In this document: positions 29,715 to 37,514 of the stretch, one piece after another | Layout of the letters: each line of letters opens with the position of its first letter | Numbering within the stretch: position 1 is the stretch's first letter | The notes under the pieces: model-generated | Told to the model about the DNA's origin: nothing | Database searches by the model: none | The model's input: only the letters and a program-made list of their open reading frames with translations | IMG/VR virus record: IMGVR_UViG_2660238346_000033 | From: a virus | Taxonomy: Duplodnaviria > Heunggongvirae > Uroviricota > Caudoviricetes | Strand: one strand, 5' to 3' | Length of the DNA: 37,514 nucleotides | Position numbers and translations under genes: made by a program

Positions 29715-32486
29715 TTCTGTCTGTTTTTTGTTTCCACTGGTCAGGCCACCCCGCAGCAGGTTTGCTTTGCGGCGGGCGCGTTCAGTGGTTTCACTGATTC
29801 TCTGTGCGTGCTCTGCGTCGCGGATGGCGCGCAGCATGTCAGAAAGTACGGTAACGGGTGTTTTCATGGTGTTCTGGTCTTGCTGAAGTGTGGATGCCAG
29901 GCGTGCGGCGGCTTCGGGGTCTGATGCCCCCAGCTGCTCCAGATAGCTGGCGACCGGGTTATGGCGGATCTCCGTGCTGCTTGCGCCGTGGTTACGGCTC
30001 AGGCGCTGCCAGAGCTGCGTGATCCGGCTGTCCGGTCGGGTATCCGGTTTGCGTACAATTTCAAATCCCTGCGGTGCAATGATGCTGCCGTCAACGTACA
30101 GACTGCCGCCCCGTAACAGGTGCTGCATTTGCTGTTCACCGATATGCAGGCCGAGAGATTCAGCAGACTCCCGCCATTCTTTAGCGAGTAATTCGTGGTT
30201 ATCAGGCAAAGGCCGCTGCTGTTTGCGGCTCTGTGTCCAGCTCTGCATTTCATCACTGCTGTTTTTTGCCTGTTTGTCACGAAGCGAACGCATCAGCGCC
30301 CGGCGTTCGTGCCGTTTCAGTGAGCGCATCCATTCGTTCACGTCAACGCCGTCAGGAAGCTGCGGCCACGGTGCTGGCCGTTCTTCCGGCTGTTCTGTCC
30401 CGTTGTTGTCCGTTTCCTGTACACGGGGACAGTTATTGCCACGAGTCCAAGGGGCGGCAGGGCCGCCCTGAAGGTCAAAACCATTTTCGCGGGCGCTGTC
30501 TTCCGCTTCCGGTTTACGTCTTACCAGCTTCCAGTTATCCGGGTGCGTGCACACGCGGGAAGATTCCCCGATTTGTGGCGACCAGATCCCGTAAATCTGT
30601 ACGCTTTGCTCGCCGTAATCGTTCAGCTCTTCTGCGAGGTCGTAGGCGGTGCGAATCAGGTAGTCTTTGCGTGGAACAAGTACGCCACCCTGTTTCTCAA
30701 TGTAGGTGGCAAAACACCCGGCATCAGCGGCAGCGAGTACCGCATCCATTGCGTCATTTTCCAGACGTTGTGGACCTTCCGGGTTGCGGGCCATCTGACT
30801 GGCAAGGCGGCGGAGTTCACGCCATACCTGACGGGAGGGGATACCAAAGAACTGGAACTGGCGGATGCGGTGAAGACGCGCCCAGCCGATGGCGCGTTCC
30901 ACGCTCTCGGCCATTGATTTTCCGGTTTCGTGGTCCACGCGTGGCTTGTCCGTTTTCGGGTCGATGCCATCCACGGCGCGGCTGTCCAGGTTCTTTCCGA
31001 TGTAGGTGGCGATGTAGCTGGTTGGCGTGCCTTTTGAGCCGTCGACATACTCCACCTTAAAGCGCGGAGTAATATCATTGCCCAGCTCGTGGCGGTCTTC
31101 CTGAATGGCAATATCGCGGGTATGGGACACAATGGTGTCGATTTCTTCCGGATGTGCAAAGACCATCATATGCCAGTGTACGGTGCCGTCATGATGAGGC
31201 TCCACCGTGCGGATGCCATACCAGCGCAGGTCGTCGCGGTTCAGTTTTTTGCGGACCGCCGCAAAAAACGTGTTAACCAGGTAATCGCTGGAGTCGCGCA
31301 TTGTGGCCCCGTTCCATTTGGGATTCGGATGACCGTTCTCCGTTGTGGCGTGGTATTTTGACGGGCAGGTGACAGTCAGAAACACCGCTTTGTCGCCACG
31401 GGCTTCGGCCAGAAGTTCCAGCCCCTTCATGGTGGCCATCATTTCTGCCTTACGGTGAACCGGGTTACTTACTCCCGCGTAATACACCGTCTCGAGATCA
31501 ATCGTGAACCCGTCTTCATTTTCCAGCATGAAACTTTTCAGGAAATCGCGTGTTTTCTCGCGCTGTGCGCGAAACTCGCTTAACGCGTCCTGGCTCAGAT
31601 AGGGCGATGTTTTTCTGGAAACCAGACAGGCGGCGCGGAGTTGTTCTTCTCTCCACTCGCAACGTAACAGCCACAGTTTGCGTTTCCACCATTCCGCACA
31701 GGTCAGGCGAAGGATTGCGCCCGGCAGCAGTTCTGTGTCCGGTTCGTGCCTCCGGTCTTTGTCTGTTGTCAGTGCGTCATAATGCGGAGGCATGGCGTGT
31801 AAGTGTAACGCCATGCGGGCCAGCATCTGATACGCCTTCAGCGTTACATCCATGGTCAGCTCGCCATTAGTCGCGCCAAAACCATCGCAGAGTTTTTCGA
31901 AGGTGCTGCTGAACATCGCCGCCGTCATGGTGGCCAGCGTCTGTATCTGGTGTTTGTTGAGTTGCGGCAGGTAAAGCAAATCGTCCAGGCGTTCACGTCC
32001 GGCAAGGGAGCGATAACCCGATGTCAGCCATCGGTGATCGGTGCGCTCCAGACGTTCGAATATTTTGCGCAGGGTCCCACGCGCATAGCGTTCTGCCTGC
32101 CTGGCGTTTTTTCCTTTCTGACGATCGGCTTCCTGTTTTTTGCGCAGGAAGGAGAGGTGGCGAATAAGCGGATCGCGCAGATAGGACGGCAGCAGGCGCA
32201 GTGAGGCCATGGCCTCATCTACCGCGCCGCGTGCCTGTTTTCTGGCGTCTCCTGCCAGTGTGATTGTTTTGTCCTGTTTTTCCTGTGCGTCCAGGCTTTT
32301 ATTAATCAGGTTGCCCAGCGGCGTGGCGGAGAACGCCGCATCAGCCATTTCCTGGCGGCGCTCGTTCTCTGCCCGGTAGGCATCCAGCCAGGAGGAAAGC
32401 GCGGATTCAGGAGCGGGGATCCCCGTTCCTTCACGCCCCACTGCGTGGCGCGGTTGTTGCCAGTCCCTGATGTACTCTGCCGTCAT
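29664..32486 (-). CDS. A: rolling-circle replication initiation endonuclease (P2 gpA-like)
   Basis: 940-aa ORF with HUH-type motif (VHWHMMVF) and conserved central region; longer than P2 gpA. Confidence 0.85.
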   Translation of the reverse strand: MTAEYIRDWQQPRHAVGREGTGIPAPESALSSWLDAYRAENERRQEMADAAFSATPLGNLINKSLDAQEKQDKTITLAGDARKQARGAVDEAMASLRLLPSYLRDPLIRHLSFLRKKQEADRQKGKNARQAERYARGTLRKIFERLERTDHRWLTSGYRSLAGRERLDDLLYLPQLNKHQIQTLATMTAAMFSSTFEKLCDGFGATNGELTMDVTLKAYQMLARMALHLHAMPPHYDALTTDKDRRHEPDTELLPGAILRLTCAEWWKRKLWLLRCEWREEQLRAACLVSRKTSPYLSQDALSEFRAQREKTRDFLKSFMLENEDGFTIDLETVYYAGVSNPVHRKAEMMATMKGLELLAEARGDKAVFLTVTCPSKYHATTENGHPNPKWNGATMRDSSDYLVNTFFAAVRKKLNRDDLRWYGIRTVEPHHDGTVHWHMMVFAHPEEIDTIVSHTRDIAIQEDRHELGNDITPRFKVEYVDGSKGTPTSYIATYIGKNLDSRAVDGIDPKTDKPRVDHETGKSMAESVERAIGWARLHRIRQFQFFGIPSRQVWRELRRLASQMARNPEGPQRLENDAMDAVLAAADAGCFATYIEKQGGVLVPRKDYLIRTAYDLAEELNDYGEQSVQIYGIWSPQIGESSRVCTHPDNWKLVRRKPEAEDSARENGFDLQGGPAAPWTRGNNCPRVQETDNNGTEQPEERPAPWPQLPDGVDVNEWMRSLKRHERRALMRSLRDKQAKNSSDEMQSWTQSRKQQRPLPDNHELLAKEWRESAESLGLHIGEQQMQHLLRGGSLYVDGSIIAPQGFEIVRKPDTRPDSRITQLWQRLSRNHGASSTEIRHNPVASYLEQLGASDPEAAARLASTLQQDQNTMKTPVTVLSDMLRAIRDAEHAQRISETTERARRKANLLRGGLTSGNKKQTETGFTNPVNEQKTRRDI

Positions 32487-34184: not shown

Positions 34185-34535
34185 TTATAAATCAGCCTGT
34201 TTAATAAAACTTTGCCCGCGAAGCAGACGATCAACCGTGCGAAGTGCTTCGTATAATGTGAAATCCTGCCCGAAGTGATTGTCGCCGCAGTTCAATGCAA
34301 AAATGCGGTTTCCGGTAAACGGATTGCGTGGGCATTTGTGGACCACGATTCCAGCTTTCTCAATCAGCCAGGCATGCTCGCCGATTTGTTTTACAGCGTG
34401 GCCATCCGGTGTTGCGTGCGTCTCGTTCAGGTTATAGCGACTGTTACTACGTGATGCACTGGTAGCGACGTGGTGTACATGGCGTTCTACGCCATTACGA
34501 AATTTGGAGTATGGATTATTAGCGTTTTTTTTCAT
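34185..34535 (-). CDS. hypothetical early-region protein
   Basis: 116-aa ORF with His/Cys-containing C-terminal half; function not recognisable. Confidence 0.4.
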   Translation of the reverse strand: MKKNANNPYSKFRNGVERHVHHVATSASRSNSRYNLNETHATPDGHAVKQIGEHAWLIEKAGIVVHKCPRNPFTGNRIFALNCGDNHFGQDFTLYEALRTVDRLLRGQSFIKQADL

Positions 34536-34556
34536 GATGGTGCTCTGTTCATTGTT

Positions 34557-34760
34557 TTAGCTGTTAGCCAAAGCGTCTTTTAACATCGCCACAAGGTTTA
34601 CTTCAGGCTTTTCCATTTTGGCGCGTTTGGGTCGGATAATAATTCGACCGTCAGCCAACATCTTTTTGCATGTATTAAGAGGGATACCTGTTATCTCTGC
34701 ATATTTCTGCAGGGATACATAGGGGGCATTCACATTGATATTGATGGTTATACCTGACAT
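34557..34760 (-). CDS. small HTH DNA-binding protein (excisionase/Cox-Apl-like)
   Basis: YVSLQKYAEITGIPLNTCKKMLADGRI HTH-like segment; second gene of the lytic operon. Confidence 0.45.
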   Translation of the reverse strand: MSGITININVNAPYVSLQKYAEITGIPLNTCKKMLADGRIIIRPKRAKMEKPEVNLVAMLKDALANS

Positions 34761-34776
34761 CCCACTAGCCTCCTGA

Positions 34777-34983
34777 TCAGGAAGATTTGTTTTGTTCTTT
34801 CTGGGTTAGCTCTAGGCCGCGAAGGAAGATCATGCGCGCCATGTTAGAGGATGAGCGTTGTTCTTTAGCTGCCATTTCATCAATGACGGCTCGCTCCTCG
34901 AGGGACAGCCGAAGTGCCAGTCTTGGACCTGTGGCGGTGTTACGCGGAATGCGTGATCTGGTATCGTGAAGAACTTGTTTCAT
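34777..34983 (-). CDS. small ribbon-helix-helix-type regulator (Cro/Cox-analogue)
   Basis: RLALRLSLEERAVIDEMAAKEQRSSSNMARMIFLRGLE resembles RHH folds; first gene divergent from the repressor. Confidence 0.5.
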   Translation of the reverse strand: MKQVLHDTRSRIPRNTATGPRLALRLSLEERAVIDEMAAKEQRSSSNMARMIFLRGLELTQKEQNKSS

Positions 34984-35059
34984 AGTGGTATATTGTGATC
35001 ATCTAATAGCTCGTGAAATCATTTTGGTATCAAAAAAGATACCTGTCAAGGTTTTTTGT
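34984..35059. promoter_or_regulatory. lysis-lysogeny switch region with operator-like palindrome
   Basis: 76-bp divergent intergenic region; perfect palindrome GGTATC-AAAAAA-GATACC at 35026-35043; further GGTAT half-sites at about 34960 and 34987. Confidence 0.5.
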
Positions 35060-35464
35060 ATGAAAAATGATATTGGTCAGCGGTTGCGTGAGGAAAGGGA
35101 AAGATTGGGACTTAGTCAAGTTGCCATGAGCGACATTGGTGGAGTCAAAAAGCTAACTCAGCTTAGATATGAGAAAGGAGATAGCTTTCCTGATGCTGCG
35201 TATTTGGCAGCGCTGTCTCGTTTTGGCCTTGATGTTCAGTATGTTGTGTTGGGAATTCACTCACCTGAAACTTATAACGATGATGAGCAGGAGTTGATTA
35301 CTCGCTTTCGAGCAGCTTCGTTAGATGTGAAAAATGCGGTGATTGGGGCTTTAAAAGGTGCGATCAGTGAAAAGGAAACTCAGCCATCAGGACGTGAGTT
35401 AAATATTTCTGGTGGTAATAACCGTATCGCTGGTCGTGACTATAACGAAACTAAGGGTAGGTGA
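35060..35464 (+). CDS. immunity repressor (XRE-family HTH, C/CI-like)
   Basis: IGQRLREERERLGLSQVAMSDIGGVKKLTQLRYEKG HTH; divergent from the lytic operon and co-oriented with integrase. Confidence 0.7.
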   Translation: MKNDIGQRLREERERLGLSQVAMSDIGGVKKLTQLRYEKGDSFPDAAYLAALSRFGLDVQYVVLGIHSPETYNDDEQELITRFRAASLDVKNAVIGALKGAISEKETQPSGRELNISGGNNRIAGRDYNETKGR

Positions 35465-35479
35465 TAGTAGGGAGGTGAC

Positions 35480-36130
35480 ATGGCCGTCAACTCAAACGGT
35501 TCAAACAATCGCGTTGCTGGGCGTGATTTTCACGAAAAGAATATTCAGATAGAGCGATATGATGGTTCTCAGACCGTCAATATCGCAATCCCTTCGAATA
35601 ATGATGATGACGATCGCCCTTTGCTTAAGGCTCAGCGTAAGGAGCTAAATAGCTTGGTTGCTGCTATTGCAGAAGCTAGCAATACTGAAGCGTTTATTAT
35701 TTGGCAAAAAGTACATGCGGAGATTGGTGTAGCTGGTATTGATGATATGACAGTAAATCAATATAAAACAGCGGAGAGTTTTCTGCATGCAATGCTTGAG
35801 CGATGTAAAGATCATGATGCCTGTAAGGCTCTTGTAAGTTTATTACTACGTAACAGTGAAGACTGTGGACTTCGACAAAAACTTCTGCGGTATTGCCATA
35901 TCAATTTCGGTACAGGACGTTTAAACGATCTTACTCGTTCTCAGTTACAGTCTGCATTGTCGTGGTTAGAGCAACAATCGGCATCAAGCCACACAGAGAG
36001 TTCGACCTTACCAGAAGTCCGACTTCGTGCTTCAGAATTAATCCGACTTTATCCAAAAGAAATAATATTCTTTATCTGCGTAGGGGTTTTGGTAGGCGGT
36101 GTCATTTCTAGGGCGTTTTTTAATTTGTAA
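35480..36130 (+). CDS. cargo protein with C-terminal transmembrane anchor, unknown function
   Basis: 216-aa ORF, GGAGG RBS, C-terminal hydrophobic helix IIFFICVGVLVGGVISRAFF; AT-rich. Confidence 0.55.
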   Translation: MAVNSNGSNNRVAGRDFHEKNIQIERYDGSQTVNIAIPSNNDDDDRPLLKAQRKELNSLVAAIAEASNTEAFIIWQKVHAEIGVAGIDDMTVNQYKTAESFLHAMLERCKDHDACKALVSLLLRNSEDCGLRQKLLRYCHINFGTGRLNDLTRSQLQSALSWLEQQSASSHTESSTLPEVRLRASELIRLYPKEIIFFICVGVLVGGVISRAFFNL

Positions 36131-36159
36131 TCTTACTTGAGCTAAATTGAGGTAATGAT

Positions 36160-36507
36160 ATGAAAGTAAAAAAGGTTCAACTATTAGTTACTTTTTTATC
36201 TATGTTTTCTTTTTCCGCCGTCGCAATGCCTTTTAAAACTATTGAACGTGAGAGTTTCAATGGGGTATGGCCATTTAATACTGATGAGGTTCAATTACAG
36301 TGTCTTGATGGTAATCCTTATGTGATGAATTTTGACGATAATAAGTTATATGCACTTACAGGTTTGGCTCGAATAAAAGGTAAAACATTTGGTGCGTTAC
36401 CGTTAGATAACAATAATCCATTTTGGCTAGATAATGATGCCGCCCCAGGGTTAAAAAAGAGTCTGGGGGATGTCACTAAGGCTGCATTTGATTTATGTGA
36501 TAAGTAA
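36160..36507 (+). CDS. small secreted/periplasmic cargo protein, unknown function
   Basis: 115-aa ORF with signal peptide MKVKKVQLLVTFLSMFSFSAVA; AT-rich; ends 6 bp before integrase. Confidence 0.55.
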   Translation: MKVKKVQLLVTFLSMFSFSAVAMPFKTIERESFNGVWPFNTDEVQLQCLDGNPYVMNFDDNKLYALTGLARIKGKTFGALPLDNNNPFWLDNDAAPGLKKSLGDVTKAAFDLCDK

Positions 36508-36512
36508 CTAAA

Positions 36513-37514
36513 ATGTCGGTTCGTAAGATTCCATCAGGTAAATGGCTTTGCGAATGTTATCCCTACGGGGCATCGGGAAAACGCATTCGTAAACAGTTTG
36601 CGACAAAAAGTGAGGCGCTCTCTTATGAGCGCCGTTTAATGAATAGTAGAGTTGGAGACGAGTTTCAAGATGGTTCTGGTCCTCGTCTTTCTGAGTTGAT
36701 TGCTCGTTGGTTTGAGATGTACGGTAAAACCTTGTCCTCTGGTGCAGAGCGCAAAGTCAAACTTGAGGCGATTTGTTCCAGGCTGGGAGATCCATTTGCT
36801 TCTCAGTTTGACAAAAATATGTTTGCTACTTATCGGGAAAGAAGGCTATCAGGAGAATGGAATCCCAAGGGGAAGAAAAAACTTAGTGAAGCAACCGTTA
36901 ATCGCGAGCAGTCATATCTACATGCTGTTTTTGCCGAACTGAAGCGCCTTGGGGAGTGGTCTGGTGAAAACCCCCTGACTGGTATTCGCAAGTTTCGTGA
37001 GGAAGAAAAGGAACTGGCGTTTCTGTATGTAGATGAGATTGAACGCCTTCTGATTGCGTGTGATGAGTCACGGAATAAAGATTTGGGGGTTGTTGTCCGT
37101 ATTGGGCTTGCGACGGGTGCTCGGTGGAGTGAAGCAGAAGGATTAAAGCAATCTCAAGTACTGCCCGGTCGAATCACATTTGTTAAAACTAAAGGAAAGA
37201 AGAACCGCACTGTACCGATTTCACCTCAATTGCAGGCTATGCTTCCTAAAAAACGAGGAGCGCTATTTTCACCATGTTATGAGGCTTTTGACGCTGCAAT
37301 TAAGAGAGCGAAGATCGAGCTTCCTGATGGGCAATTAACTCATGTGCTACGTCACACGTTTGCCAGTCATTTTATGATGCGGGGCGGAAATATTCTTGTG
37401 TTGCAAAAAATACTGGGGCATAGCGATATAAAAATGACTATGCGTTATGCGCATTTTGCTCCAGGTCATTTAGAGGCTGCTGTTGAATTGAACCCTTTTG
37501 ACAATAGAGGGTAA
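36513..37514 (+). CDS. int: tyrosine integrase (P2 Int family)
   Basis: 333-aa ORF with HVLRHTFASHF and LGHSDIKMTMRYAHF catalytic-region motifs; stop codon is the last 3 nt of the window. Confidence 0.9.
   Translation: MSVRKIPSGKWLCECYPYGASGKRIRKQFATKSEALSYERRLMNSRVGDEFQDGSGPRLSELIARWFEMYGKTLSSGAERKVKLEAICSRLGDPFASQFDKNMFATYRERRLSGEWNPKGKKKLSEATVNREQSYLHAVFAELKRLGEWSGENPLTGIRKFREEEKELAFLYVDEIERLLIACDESRNKDLGVVVRIGLATGARWSEAEGLKQSQVLPGRITFVKTKGKKNRTVPISPQLQAMLPKKRGALFSPCYEAFDAAIKRAKIELPDGQLTHVLRHTFASHFMMRGGNILVLQKILGHSDIKMTMRYAHFAPGHLEAAVELNPFDNRG

Follow-up and report, generated by a model that had tools for sequence, protein, structure and literature searches.

We analysed a 37,514-nucleotide (nt) stretch of viral DNA (IMG/VR record IMGVR_UViG_2660238346_000033), called the window throughout, and concentrated on its right-hand end, which is the lysogenic operon of a P2-like prophage (Peduoviridae, Xuanwuvirus-type). 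Two genes, here ORF1 and ORF2, lie on the plus strand at 35480-36130 and 36160-36507, between the gene for the immunity repressor and the gene for the integrase (int), where an earlier reading of the bare letters (the original prediction) had placed them. In P2 the repressor gene C is followed by int; here the gaps from repressor to ORF1, from ORF1 to ORF2, and from ORF2 to int are 15, 29, and 5 nt, which agrees with the prediction that both genes belong to the lysogenic operon behind the repressor. Each is preceded by a Shine-Dalgarno-like sequence (GGGAGGTG 5′ of ORF1 and GAGGTAA 5′ of ORF2). No terminator-like site was found on the plus strand from the repressor to the end of int, which is the last gene of the operon and whose stop codon ends with the window's final base, and a scan of 34400-37514 against Rfam returned no RNA family. 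The operon contains the following features.

35060-35464, plus strand: gene for an XRE-type helix-turn-helix (HTH) immunity repressor of 134 amino acids (aa), with matches to HTH_31/HTH_3, phrog_8/phrog_4 ('transcriptional repressor'), and RstR/DicA-like NCBIfam models
35396-35449, plus strand: C-terminal tail motif of the repressor, LNISGGNNRIAGRDYNE, residues 113-130
35480-36130, plus strand: ORF1, a predicted tail-anchored Flk_N protein ('mini-Flk') of 216 aa
35483-35536, plus strand: N-terminal arm motif of ORF1, VNSNGSNNRVAGRDFHE, residues 2-19, within a 44-residue arm modelled at low confidence (35480-35611)
35612-35995, plus strand: Flk_N helical domain of ORF1, residues 45-172
36062-36112, plus strand: C-terminal transmembrane (TM) anchor of ORF1 with G202xxxG206, residues 195-211, from the Kyte-Doolittle profile
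36160-36507, plus strand: ORF2, a predicted secreted protein of the YebY/DUF2511 family, 115 aa (signal peptide 36160-36225, mature part 36226-36504)
36513-37514, plus strand: tyrosine integrase gene, 333 aa (Int_N, E 5e-32; Phage_integrase, E 2.5e-22)

The repressor and ORF1 share a short peptide, found at the C-terminal end of the one (...LNISGGNNRIAGRDYNETKGR) and the N-terminal end of the other (MAVNSNGSNNRVAGRDFHE...). A six-frame scan of the window finds the motif in these two places only, and the local alignment score of tail against arm (62) was reached by none of 20000 shuffles. The tail motif is invariant among repressors that are only 41-57% identical, and it stands 4-6 residues from the C-terminus in 48 of the 120 listed repressor clusters, which come from many Enterobacterales. 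The arm motif is likewise invariant or nearly so in 43 members of the ORF1 family. More distant repressor homologues, from Mu-like loci, end in another, degenerate type of tail, F[HN]G.V.GQ..A..I.N. Tails and arms from further lineages pair as follows.

Pectobacterium: repressor tail QIFNGDISGQFAGNQIINN, partner arm QEFNGTAQGQFSSRDIINI
Gilliamella: repressor tail GEGQIAGGNIYTT, partner arm AEQIAGRDIYNIT
Pseudomonas: repressor tail QQFNGPVGTVTSGDVVN, partner arm QQFHDRVHQVAAGDIKN
Metagenomic pair L034: repressor tail QVFHGAVSGGVAARDIINN, partner arm QEFQGNVDGGVAGRDIVNQ

To measure co-variation, all tails were scored against all arms for 7 lineages, with 5040 permutations of the pairing. The sum of the own-pair scores (342) was the best of the 5040; five of the seven tails ranked their own arm first and the other two ranked it second. 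Shared ancestry alone cannot produce this matching, because descent brings a tail no nearer to its own arm than to the arm of another lineage. Recent gene conversion was considered as a source of the motif and rejected on codon usage: in each of five lineages, tail and arm use the same codon at only 3-4 of the 8-12 identical residues, which makes such an event unlikely. The spacing of the two genes varies from −4 to +32 nt across lineages. The pooled tails and arms are rich in G (14%), N (13%), I (9%), V (9%), and Q (8%) and poor in L (1.2%), K (2.2%), and P (2.6%). Disorder is predicted for the arm, and the tail extends a short way past the last helix of the repressor; binding peptides usually take this form.

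The body of the repressor gene is exchanged between E. coli prophages that are otherwise 80-97% identical (about 40% DNA identity at 35037-35430 between the window and a second prophage, L006), as expected of an immunity determinant. The DNA that runs from the tail through the spacer into the arm (35431-35550) is 93-95% identical between these heteroimmune prophages and is the best-conserved stretch of the region. Since it is kept while the repressor body is swapped, ORF1 is tied to the repressor's tail and not to its DNA-binding specificity. The boundary of the swap is sharp, with the cox/arc and int genes 80-97% identical around the replaced body, and a second block unrelated between the window and L006 covers the linker and TM segment of ORF1 and the slot that follows it (35971-36524). 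The repressor and ORF1 lie in the same reading frame. The interval 35462-35479 holds three successive in-frame stops (TGA TAG TAG), which close the repressor frame, and then the ribosome-binding site of ORF1; because these stops separate the two genes, a repressor-ORF1 fusion by read-through or frameshift was rejected.

The association of the two genes extends well past E. coli. Every P2-like locus examined has Cox-like and Arc-like genes pointing left and, pointing right, the repressor, the Flk_N gene, a variable slot, and int, with 9-19 nt between repressor and Flk_N gene. This order was found in Escherichia, Klebsiella, Rosenbergiella, Mixta, Izhakiella, Enterobacter, Erwinia, Kosakonia, Symbiopectobacterium, Hafnia, Arsenophonus, and Salmonella. 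BcepMu/Mu-like transposable prophages of Gilliamella, Pectobacterium, and Pseudomonas, and metagenomic relatives, carry the same pair with no integrase; their divergent strand encodes an rve transposase and an AAA_22 protein, and holin and SLT genes lie downstream. Directly behind the repressor, these Mu-like loci encode a tail-anchored protein of 186-200 aa, which bears the Flk_N tag in three of five lineages, and in a sixth lineage of this type (L034) the partner is an arm-bearing protein of 270 aa. The repressor-Flk_N cassette thus moves as a unit between unrelated temperate phage types. As a control, a related P2-like repressor that lacks the tail has no Flk_N gene downstream.

In the loci with this tail-less repressor (L043 and L044, a P2-like prophage by pgsA/uvrC), the next gene encodes a 117-aa Cys-rich protein (CxxC...CxxC), followed by a different tail-anchored protein, a coiled coil of 140 aa, and then int; a tail-anchored protein behind the repressor may be a recurring theme. 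One Salmonella enterica locus (L041, 767-1982) has three tandem repressor paralogues (141, 124, and 121 aa) ahead of the Flk_N gene. The tail motif is intact in two of these and degenerate in one, and a 440-aa membrane/BRCT-like cargo gene and int come after.

The original prediction saw no recognisable domains in either product. This does not hold: close homologues of ORF1 all carry a precomputed tag for the Pfam family PF27202 (Flk_N), and ORF2 exceeds the cut-off of PF10709. ORF1 matches phrog_5825 from end to end (E 6.6e-103). Its residues 35-166 match positions 18-149 of the NCBIfam Flk model (E 7.8e-16) with 58.3 bits, far short of the 353-bit cut-off for the Flk equivalog (NF007987, a full-length model of about 330 aa), and BLASTP aligns it to residues 26-146 of K-12 Flk with 28% identity over 124 residues (E 2e-10). 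K-12 Flk repeats this unit: one copy spans residues 26-146 and the next starts at about residue 151. ORF1 has it once. We assign ORF1 to PF27202 through the tags of its homologues, the NCBIfam match, and BLASTP. Pfam matches of ORF1 to zf-P11 and ELYS fell below threshold and were discarded.

The C-terminal anchor named in the original prediction is there: the sole hydrophobic segment of ORF1 (residues 195-211, IIFFICVGVLVGGVISR, grand average of hydropathy 2.36) lies at the extreme C-terminus with 5 residues after it, and the rest of the protein has a maximum 19-residue Kyte-Doolittle value of 1.09. Within the segment G202 is invariant and G206 is at least 90% conserved. From this profile we infer that ORF1 is a tail-anchored inner-membrane protein that faces the cytoplasm and exposes about 5 residues to the periplasm. 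An AlphaFold model built with 43 sequences (overall predicted local distance difference test score, pLDDT, 73.9) shows a five-helix domain at residues 46-172 (pLDDT about 85), a helix at 192-214, and a variable linker between them. Residues 1-44, the arm, have pLDDT below 50 and are predicted to be disordered.

A profile search for the ORF1 family in 1.84 billion representatives returned just 142 clusters. ORF1-like proteins among them have 185-225 aa, the arm motif, and a tail anchor with GxxxG; Flk proper has 320-430 aa and no arm motif; and a third group has a TM segment in mid-protein followed by an extracytoplasmic tail of 55-90 residues. Several representatives (P0247, P0254, P0259, P0260, P0263, P0266, P0267, and P0271-P0273) join the arm motif and the first half of Flk_N to such a mid-protein TM segment, and the tails of the mid-TM representatives have Cys and Trp residues that are conserved. 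These representatives may be forms of the ORF1 family that act as transmembrane sensors, and the presence of extracytoplasmic tails in some relatives suggests that the family can relay envelope information. There are also a few natural fusions of the first half of the Flk_N domain to AntA, Rha, or XRE-HTH regulators (Pfam label ORF6C). The family is commonest in Klebsiella pneumoniae, a classically non-flagellate species, and one cluster occurs in 1158 index blocks. Neither ORF1 nor ORF2 matched any PADLOC-DB 2.0 model at E up to 1.

The one studied relative of ORF1 is Flk (Fluke/RflH), which inhibits the specificity switch of the flagellum's type III secretion system (T3SS) in Salmonella and E. 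coli and blocks FlgM secretion. It shares with ORF1 the homologous Flk_N unit and an N-in, tail-anchored topology. It differs in having two or three Flk_N units where ORF1 has one, and in lacking the arm motif; ORF1, unlike Flk, is phage-borne, always sits behind a repressor gene, and abounds in hosts that lack flagella. That Flk is tail-anchored in the inner membrane has been validated by experiment (PMC6794478). It faces the cytoplasm, where it contacts the cytoplasmic domain of FlhA, keeping this inactive, and holds the export gate in its early mode (PMC13344023).

ORF2 behaves differently from ORF1. It matches Pfam PF10709 (DUF2511/YebY) over profile positions 2-87 of 87 with 28.4 bits (gathering cut-off 21), phrog_2950 with E 8.7e-40, and the sequence of E. 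coli YebY in PDB entry 7N0J with E 0.0027. It is 36% identical to K-12 YebY, with W37, C48, and C113 at the same positions, and these three residues are invariant in its 16 closest phage-borne relatives. The predicted signal peptide, MKVKKVQ (+3) / LLVTFLSMFSFS / AVA|MP, is of the canonical Sec type for signal peptidase I with no lipobox Cys; the original prediction had likewise seen a signal peptide here. The AlphaFold2 (AF2) model of ORF2 has a pLDDT of 73, and its best PDB match is MlbQ (2MVO; E 9e-3, probability 1.0, TM-score 0.44); the YebY structure 7N0J is not among the listed fold matches. Domain and structure prediction, which had been proposed as a check on the pair, thus gave Flk_N and a five-helix domain for ORF1 and YebY for ORF2, with the fold match of ORF2 at the TM-score just given.

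Host YebY is a periplasmic monomer, stabilised by a Cys48-Cys113 disulfide, that binds copper weakly and resembles MlbQ (PMC8689200), and copper uptake that depends on YebZ falls when it is co-expressed (PMC11923076). Roughly half the family lies outside AZY operons, and yebY homologues between a XerD-type recombinase and an HTH gene of the phage CI repressor type were already remarked in some Enterobacteriaceae in 2021 (PMC8689200), so the prophage context of ORF2 is not new; ORF2 adds a member to a known family, in a setting already in the literature. It resembles YebY and MlbQ in its Sec signal, its DUF2511 match, and the positions of Trp37 and the Cys48-Cys113 pair, and differs from them in lying in a prophage lysogeny operon and not beside copC/copD or an ABC transporter. 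On this sequence evidence ORF2 is very probably a periplasmic YebY-family moron in a variable slot. It would be a disulfide-stabilised periplasmic binder, co-expressed with the repressor and independent of ORF1. By analogy with host YebY it might damp copper import through YebZ/YobA, a possibility we regard as plausible and on balance doubtful; an MlbQ-like protection against an envelope-acting peptide or phage component is a slightly more doubtful suggestion.

The position between the Flk_N gene and int holds the following genes.

YebY: the window, Klebsiella, Rosenbergiella
BRCT protein of 288/292 aa: Klebsiella, Enterobacter
DUF8087 protein: E. coli, Izhakiella, Symbiopectobacterium
Unrelated 244-aa protein: Mixta
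Unrelated 291-aa protein: Kosakonia
Unrelated 242-aa protein: Hafnia
Unrelated 440-aa protein: Salmonella
Nothing: Arsenophonus

Because these contents vary while the Flk_N gene stays constant, ORF2 is cargo in an accessory hotspot and ORF1 is not. Four of the slot cargos show a relationship to PDC-S48, a candidate defence family in PADLOC (E 1e-3 to 1e-8), and have BRCT or weak WYL signals (L002, 4647-5513; L018, 5635-6513; L020, 5663-6538; L041, 2871-4193). A 2026 survey reports that 8% of the defence systems in P2-like phages lie in the interval between int and primase, a known minor defence hotspot (PMC13586616). The slot is like the accessory and defence hotspots of P2-like phages (Rousset et al. 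2022; PMC13586616) in having conserved flanks and unrelated, quickly exchanged contents, some of them PDC-S48-related; it differs in that these two sources, as far as they were read, do not single out a slot behind the Flk_N gene inside the lysogenic operon, and in that YebY is not a known defence protein. The original prediction had taken the location as typical of exclusion or lysogenic-conversion genes. For ORF2 this is supported in so far as it occupies a variable slot, some of whose sibling cargos are PDC-S48-related; ORF1 is instead a constant companion of the repressor. The notion of an inserted rexAB-like pair fails, as ORF1 is constant even in Mu-like prophages without int and ORF2 is exchanged independently of it. 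Both genes had also been described as AT-rich. Their GC contents (0.415 for ORF1 and 0.353 for ORF2) are indeed below that of the window (0.519), but low GC is not specific to them: the repressor (0.437), the Cox-like gene (0.417), and int (0.45) are AT-rich as well, so that ORF2 alone stands out.

We consider it somewhat better than an even bet that, overall, ORF1 is a membrane-held partner of the repressor in the immunity or induction switch and ORF2 is independent cargo in the variable slot. On the comparisons above, a functional coupling of some kind between ORF1 and the repressor is likely; that the coupling takes the form of direct binding of the tail to the arm (or of the tail to the domain) has about an even chance. 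The co-varying terminal peptide common to the two proteins points to a place for ORF1 in the immunity/induction circuit and not in lysogenic conversion. ORF1, anchored on the inner membrane, would communicate physically with the repressor. The likeliest contact would be a pairing of repressor tail and ORF1 arm by beta-strand addition; alternatively, both peptides could dock in one co-evolving site on the Flk_N domain, which is the only lineage-specific candidate for such a site. We prefer a model in which ORF1 would be a membrane-tethered sensor that captures or inactivates the repressor upon a signal and so gives RecA-independent induction. An ORF1 that stabilises or buffers the repressor pool would be equally compatible with the data.

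Flk, a tail-anchored Flk_N protein that acts from the membrane to restrain a partner in the cytoplasm, may serve as a precedent. Two further leads come from bacterial and phage regulation: Mlc is sequestered at the membrane by PtsG, and lambda CIII is a membrane-associated decoy for FtsH. In both a cytoplasmic regulator is controlled from the inner membrane, and CIII competes for the regulator's recogniser; neither has any sequence or structural relationship to ORF1. In the literature we found no description of a repressor-Flk_N cassette with co-varying end-peptides and nothing relevant on membrane sequestration of prophage repressors. The cassette therefore appears to be undescribed, and it appears to be what is new here, the kinds behind it (control of a regulator by tethering at the membrane, and matched-peptide gene pairs) being known.

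In a more specific version, which we think improbable, tail and arm would form a prion-like or amyloid-signalling pair. ORF1 would template or co-assemble the repressor, through its tail, on a membrane or envelope cue such as superinfection or envelope damage, the repressor would be switched off, and with immunity lifted the prophage would be induced. Matched end-peptides on adjacent genes with a Q/N/G/V/I bias are the discovery signature of amyloid-signalling pairs in fungi and bacteria (bioRxiv 10.1101/2020.01.06.895854), and the same signature marks the prophage-borne Bab/Agp abortive-infection system of E. coli (bioRxiv 10.1101/2024.11.07.622273). The likeness to the known pairs (HET-s/NWD2; BASS1-10 Bell/NLR; Bab/Agp, BASS11) covers several properties. 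The C-terminus of the upstream product matches the N-terminus of the downstream one, the genes lie collinear with hardly a gap, the motifs vary from lineage to lineage and match within pairs, and the peptides are rich in G/N/Q/V/I and poor in L/K/P; E. coli Bab/Agp is also, like our pair, carried by a prophage. However, the known pairs link a STAND/NLR or TPR sensor to a membrane-targeting cell-death effector, whereas here an XRE repressor is linked to a Flk_N protein, and the enterobacterial repressor/ORF1 motif, at about 13-17 residues, is short and includes R, D, and E. We hold the amyloid version low because the partner domains are entirely different.

Several explanations would dispense with a membrane-held repressor partner. 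The tail/arm similarity could be functionless, a junction linker that promotes module exchange or the product of repeated gene conversion, with ORF1 doing something unrelated. Phage mosaic joints often lie at gene boundaries, and the tail-spacer-arm DNA, the best-conserved stretch, does form the mosaic boundary of the swapped repressor bodies. Yet in five lineages the two copies agree in only about half of their codons at identical residues, the matching persists where one lineage's motif can no longer be recognised in another's and where gene spacing, overlaps included, runs anywhere from −4 to +32 nt, and both peptides are invariant in families whose identity otherwise falls to 40-60%, so we rate this account as unlikely. 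Nor do we give much weight, though slightly more, to ORF1 being a membrane effector that acts from the cytoplasmic face in superinfection exclusion or abortive infection, with the repressor tail as its keeper or trigger. Its tail-anchored topology, the conserved GxxxG, which suggests association of TM helices, and its predicted expression with the repressor would suit an effector, as would the matching peptides on adjacent genes in E. coli Bab/Agp (bioRxiv 10.1101/2024.11.07.622273) and the different tail-anchored protein found at the same place in the tail-less repressor lineage. But ORF1 has a single short TM segment, is nearly all cytoplasmic, and contains neither a pore-forming nor an enzymatic domain; PADLOC gives no match to it; its only studied relative, Flk, binds a cytoplasmic partner and does not damage membranes; and the shared peptide is left unexplained unless the repressor tail is the trigger.

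The rexAB-like reading, with ORF1 and ORF2 as a two-gene exclusion or lysogenic-conversion module inserted in the repressor-int operon, we regard as very improbable. Both genes lie in the lysogenic operon, both products are directed to the envelope, and the slot of sibling prophages holds candidate defence genes. ORF1, however, is followed by at least six other cargos in different loci, or by no cargo, and is found in Mu-like prophages with neither ORF2 nor int; ORF2-type genes form 18 clusters against more than 194 for ORF1; and neither protein matches PADLOC. ORF1 would moreover show only about 5 residues to the periplasm, the compartment of ORF2, a poor fit for a periplasm-facing exclusion protein. 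It is more improbable still, to the point that we scarcely entertain it, that ORF1 is a phage copy of Flk that reprograms the host's flagellar T3SS switch and so changes the motility or flagellin expression of the lysogen. ORF1 is homologous to the N-terminal unit of Flk and has the same tail-anchored architecture, and Flk binds FlhA-C. Against this are its 58 bits where the equivalog cut-off is 353, its one unit where Flk has two or three, the lack of the arm motif in Flk proper, and the abundance of its family in Klebsiella pneumoniae, and the reading leaves both the repressor linkage and the shared peptide unexplained.

Some observations weigh against a membrane-held repressor partner and the independent cargo beside it. 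On a short metagenomic contig (L037), the gene behind one tail-bearing repressor-like gene encodes a DUF1889 protein, and this protein lacks a matching arm. In a Gilliamella Mu-like contig (L029, 3905-4485) the Flk_N gene is split into 53 and 92 aa while the repressor is intact, from which ORF1 is probably dispensable for repression itself. The monomer model of ORF1 gives no confident docking of the arm onto the domain, and an antirepressor that is co-expressed with its repressor would require an activating signal. Co-variation could in principle also arise from episodic gene conversion followed by synonymous drift. For ORF2, the copC/copD neighbours of canonical yebY are absent the flanking genes are the Flk_N gene and int, and PADLOC gives no match; the roles suggested for it come from family membership.

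P2-type phages are the textbook 'non-inducible' prophages, and the control of their repressors in vivo is poorly understood. A portable cassette of a repressor and a membrane protein with co-evolving end-peptides would add a new layer of lysogeny control. Its carriers are O157:H7 EDL933 along with hundreds more E. coli, Klebsiella, Salmonella, Yersinia, Pectobacterium, and Mu-like Pseudomonas phages. The Flk_N domain, an orphan otherwise, would gain a second biological context, which could help explain how Flk restrains FlhA. If the amyloid version were true, P2-like and Mu-like phages, and with them about a tenth of E. coli genomes, would have RecA-independent, membrane-triggered induction through a functional amyloid. 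The slot would be a further accessory hotspot inside the lysogenic operon, where position should guarantee expression of the cargo in the lysogen, and in pathogenic E. coli a phage-borne YebY would connect the carriage of prophages with the handling of copper in the periplasm or with protection of the envelope.

To the left of the repressor lie the early genes and the presumed switch region.

34557-34760, minus strand: Cox-like excisionase/repressor gene (phrog_575, E 1e-27)
34777-34983, minus strand: Arc-like gene (phrog_3431, E 1e-28)
35021-35049, minus strand: sigma-70-like site TTGACA-17-CAAAAT, a consensus match and the candidate Pe of a face-to-face switch

The same strand also carries a DUF4761 gene. 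The Arc-like and Cox-like genes diverge from the repressor and are conserved at every P2-like locus in the survey. RefSeq records of E. coli leave the Arc-like frame (34777-34983, minus strand) unannotated and call instead a hypothetical ORF of 45 aa on the opposite strand (about 34833-34970, plus strand); the gene is annotated in the phage record NC_049344. The sigma-70-like site (35049-35021), the sole promoter-like match near the switch, points leftwards to the early genes. In P2-type switches Pe and Pc stand face to face (PMC1904263), a layout that the orientation of this site fits. An inverted repeat (20-nt arms, 75% complementary) and three direct repeats resembling TGGTATCAAAAA, at 35018-35071 and 35140-35151, straddle the repressor start codon and the leftward site and are candidate operators of such a switch. 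No SOS-linked antirepressor was identified in the window. It has one exact LexA-box-like CTGT-N8-ACAG at 30417-30432, which is probably a chance match, since at least one such match occurs in 28% of shuffled sequences.

At 99-100% identity, the 2.6-kb region occurs in 481 complete E. coli genomes, and 506 of 5426 (about 9%) cover at least 80% of it. It is always single-copy and adjoins yecA in E. coli chromosomes. An ORF1-type gene occurs in 525 E. coli genomes, O157:H7 EDL933 among the carriers. When ORF1 and ORF2 were searched against 50,697 phage records with tblastn, the only record found was Escherichia phage 520873 (Peduoviridae, Xuanwuvirus; NC_049344.1), the closest phage record to the window, in which ORF1, ORF2, and int are frameshifted, ORF1 and ORF2 are unannotated, and int is split into two coding sequences. 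The same record contains part of the host's yecA, and together these features suggest a prophage-derived sequence that contains errors. In two genomes of insect symbionts (L023 and L026), the Flk_N gene and int are both fragmented, which marks these as decaying prophages.

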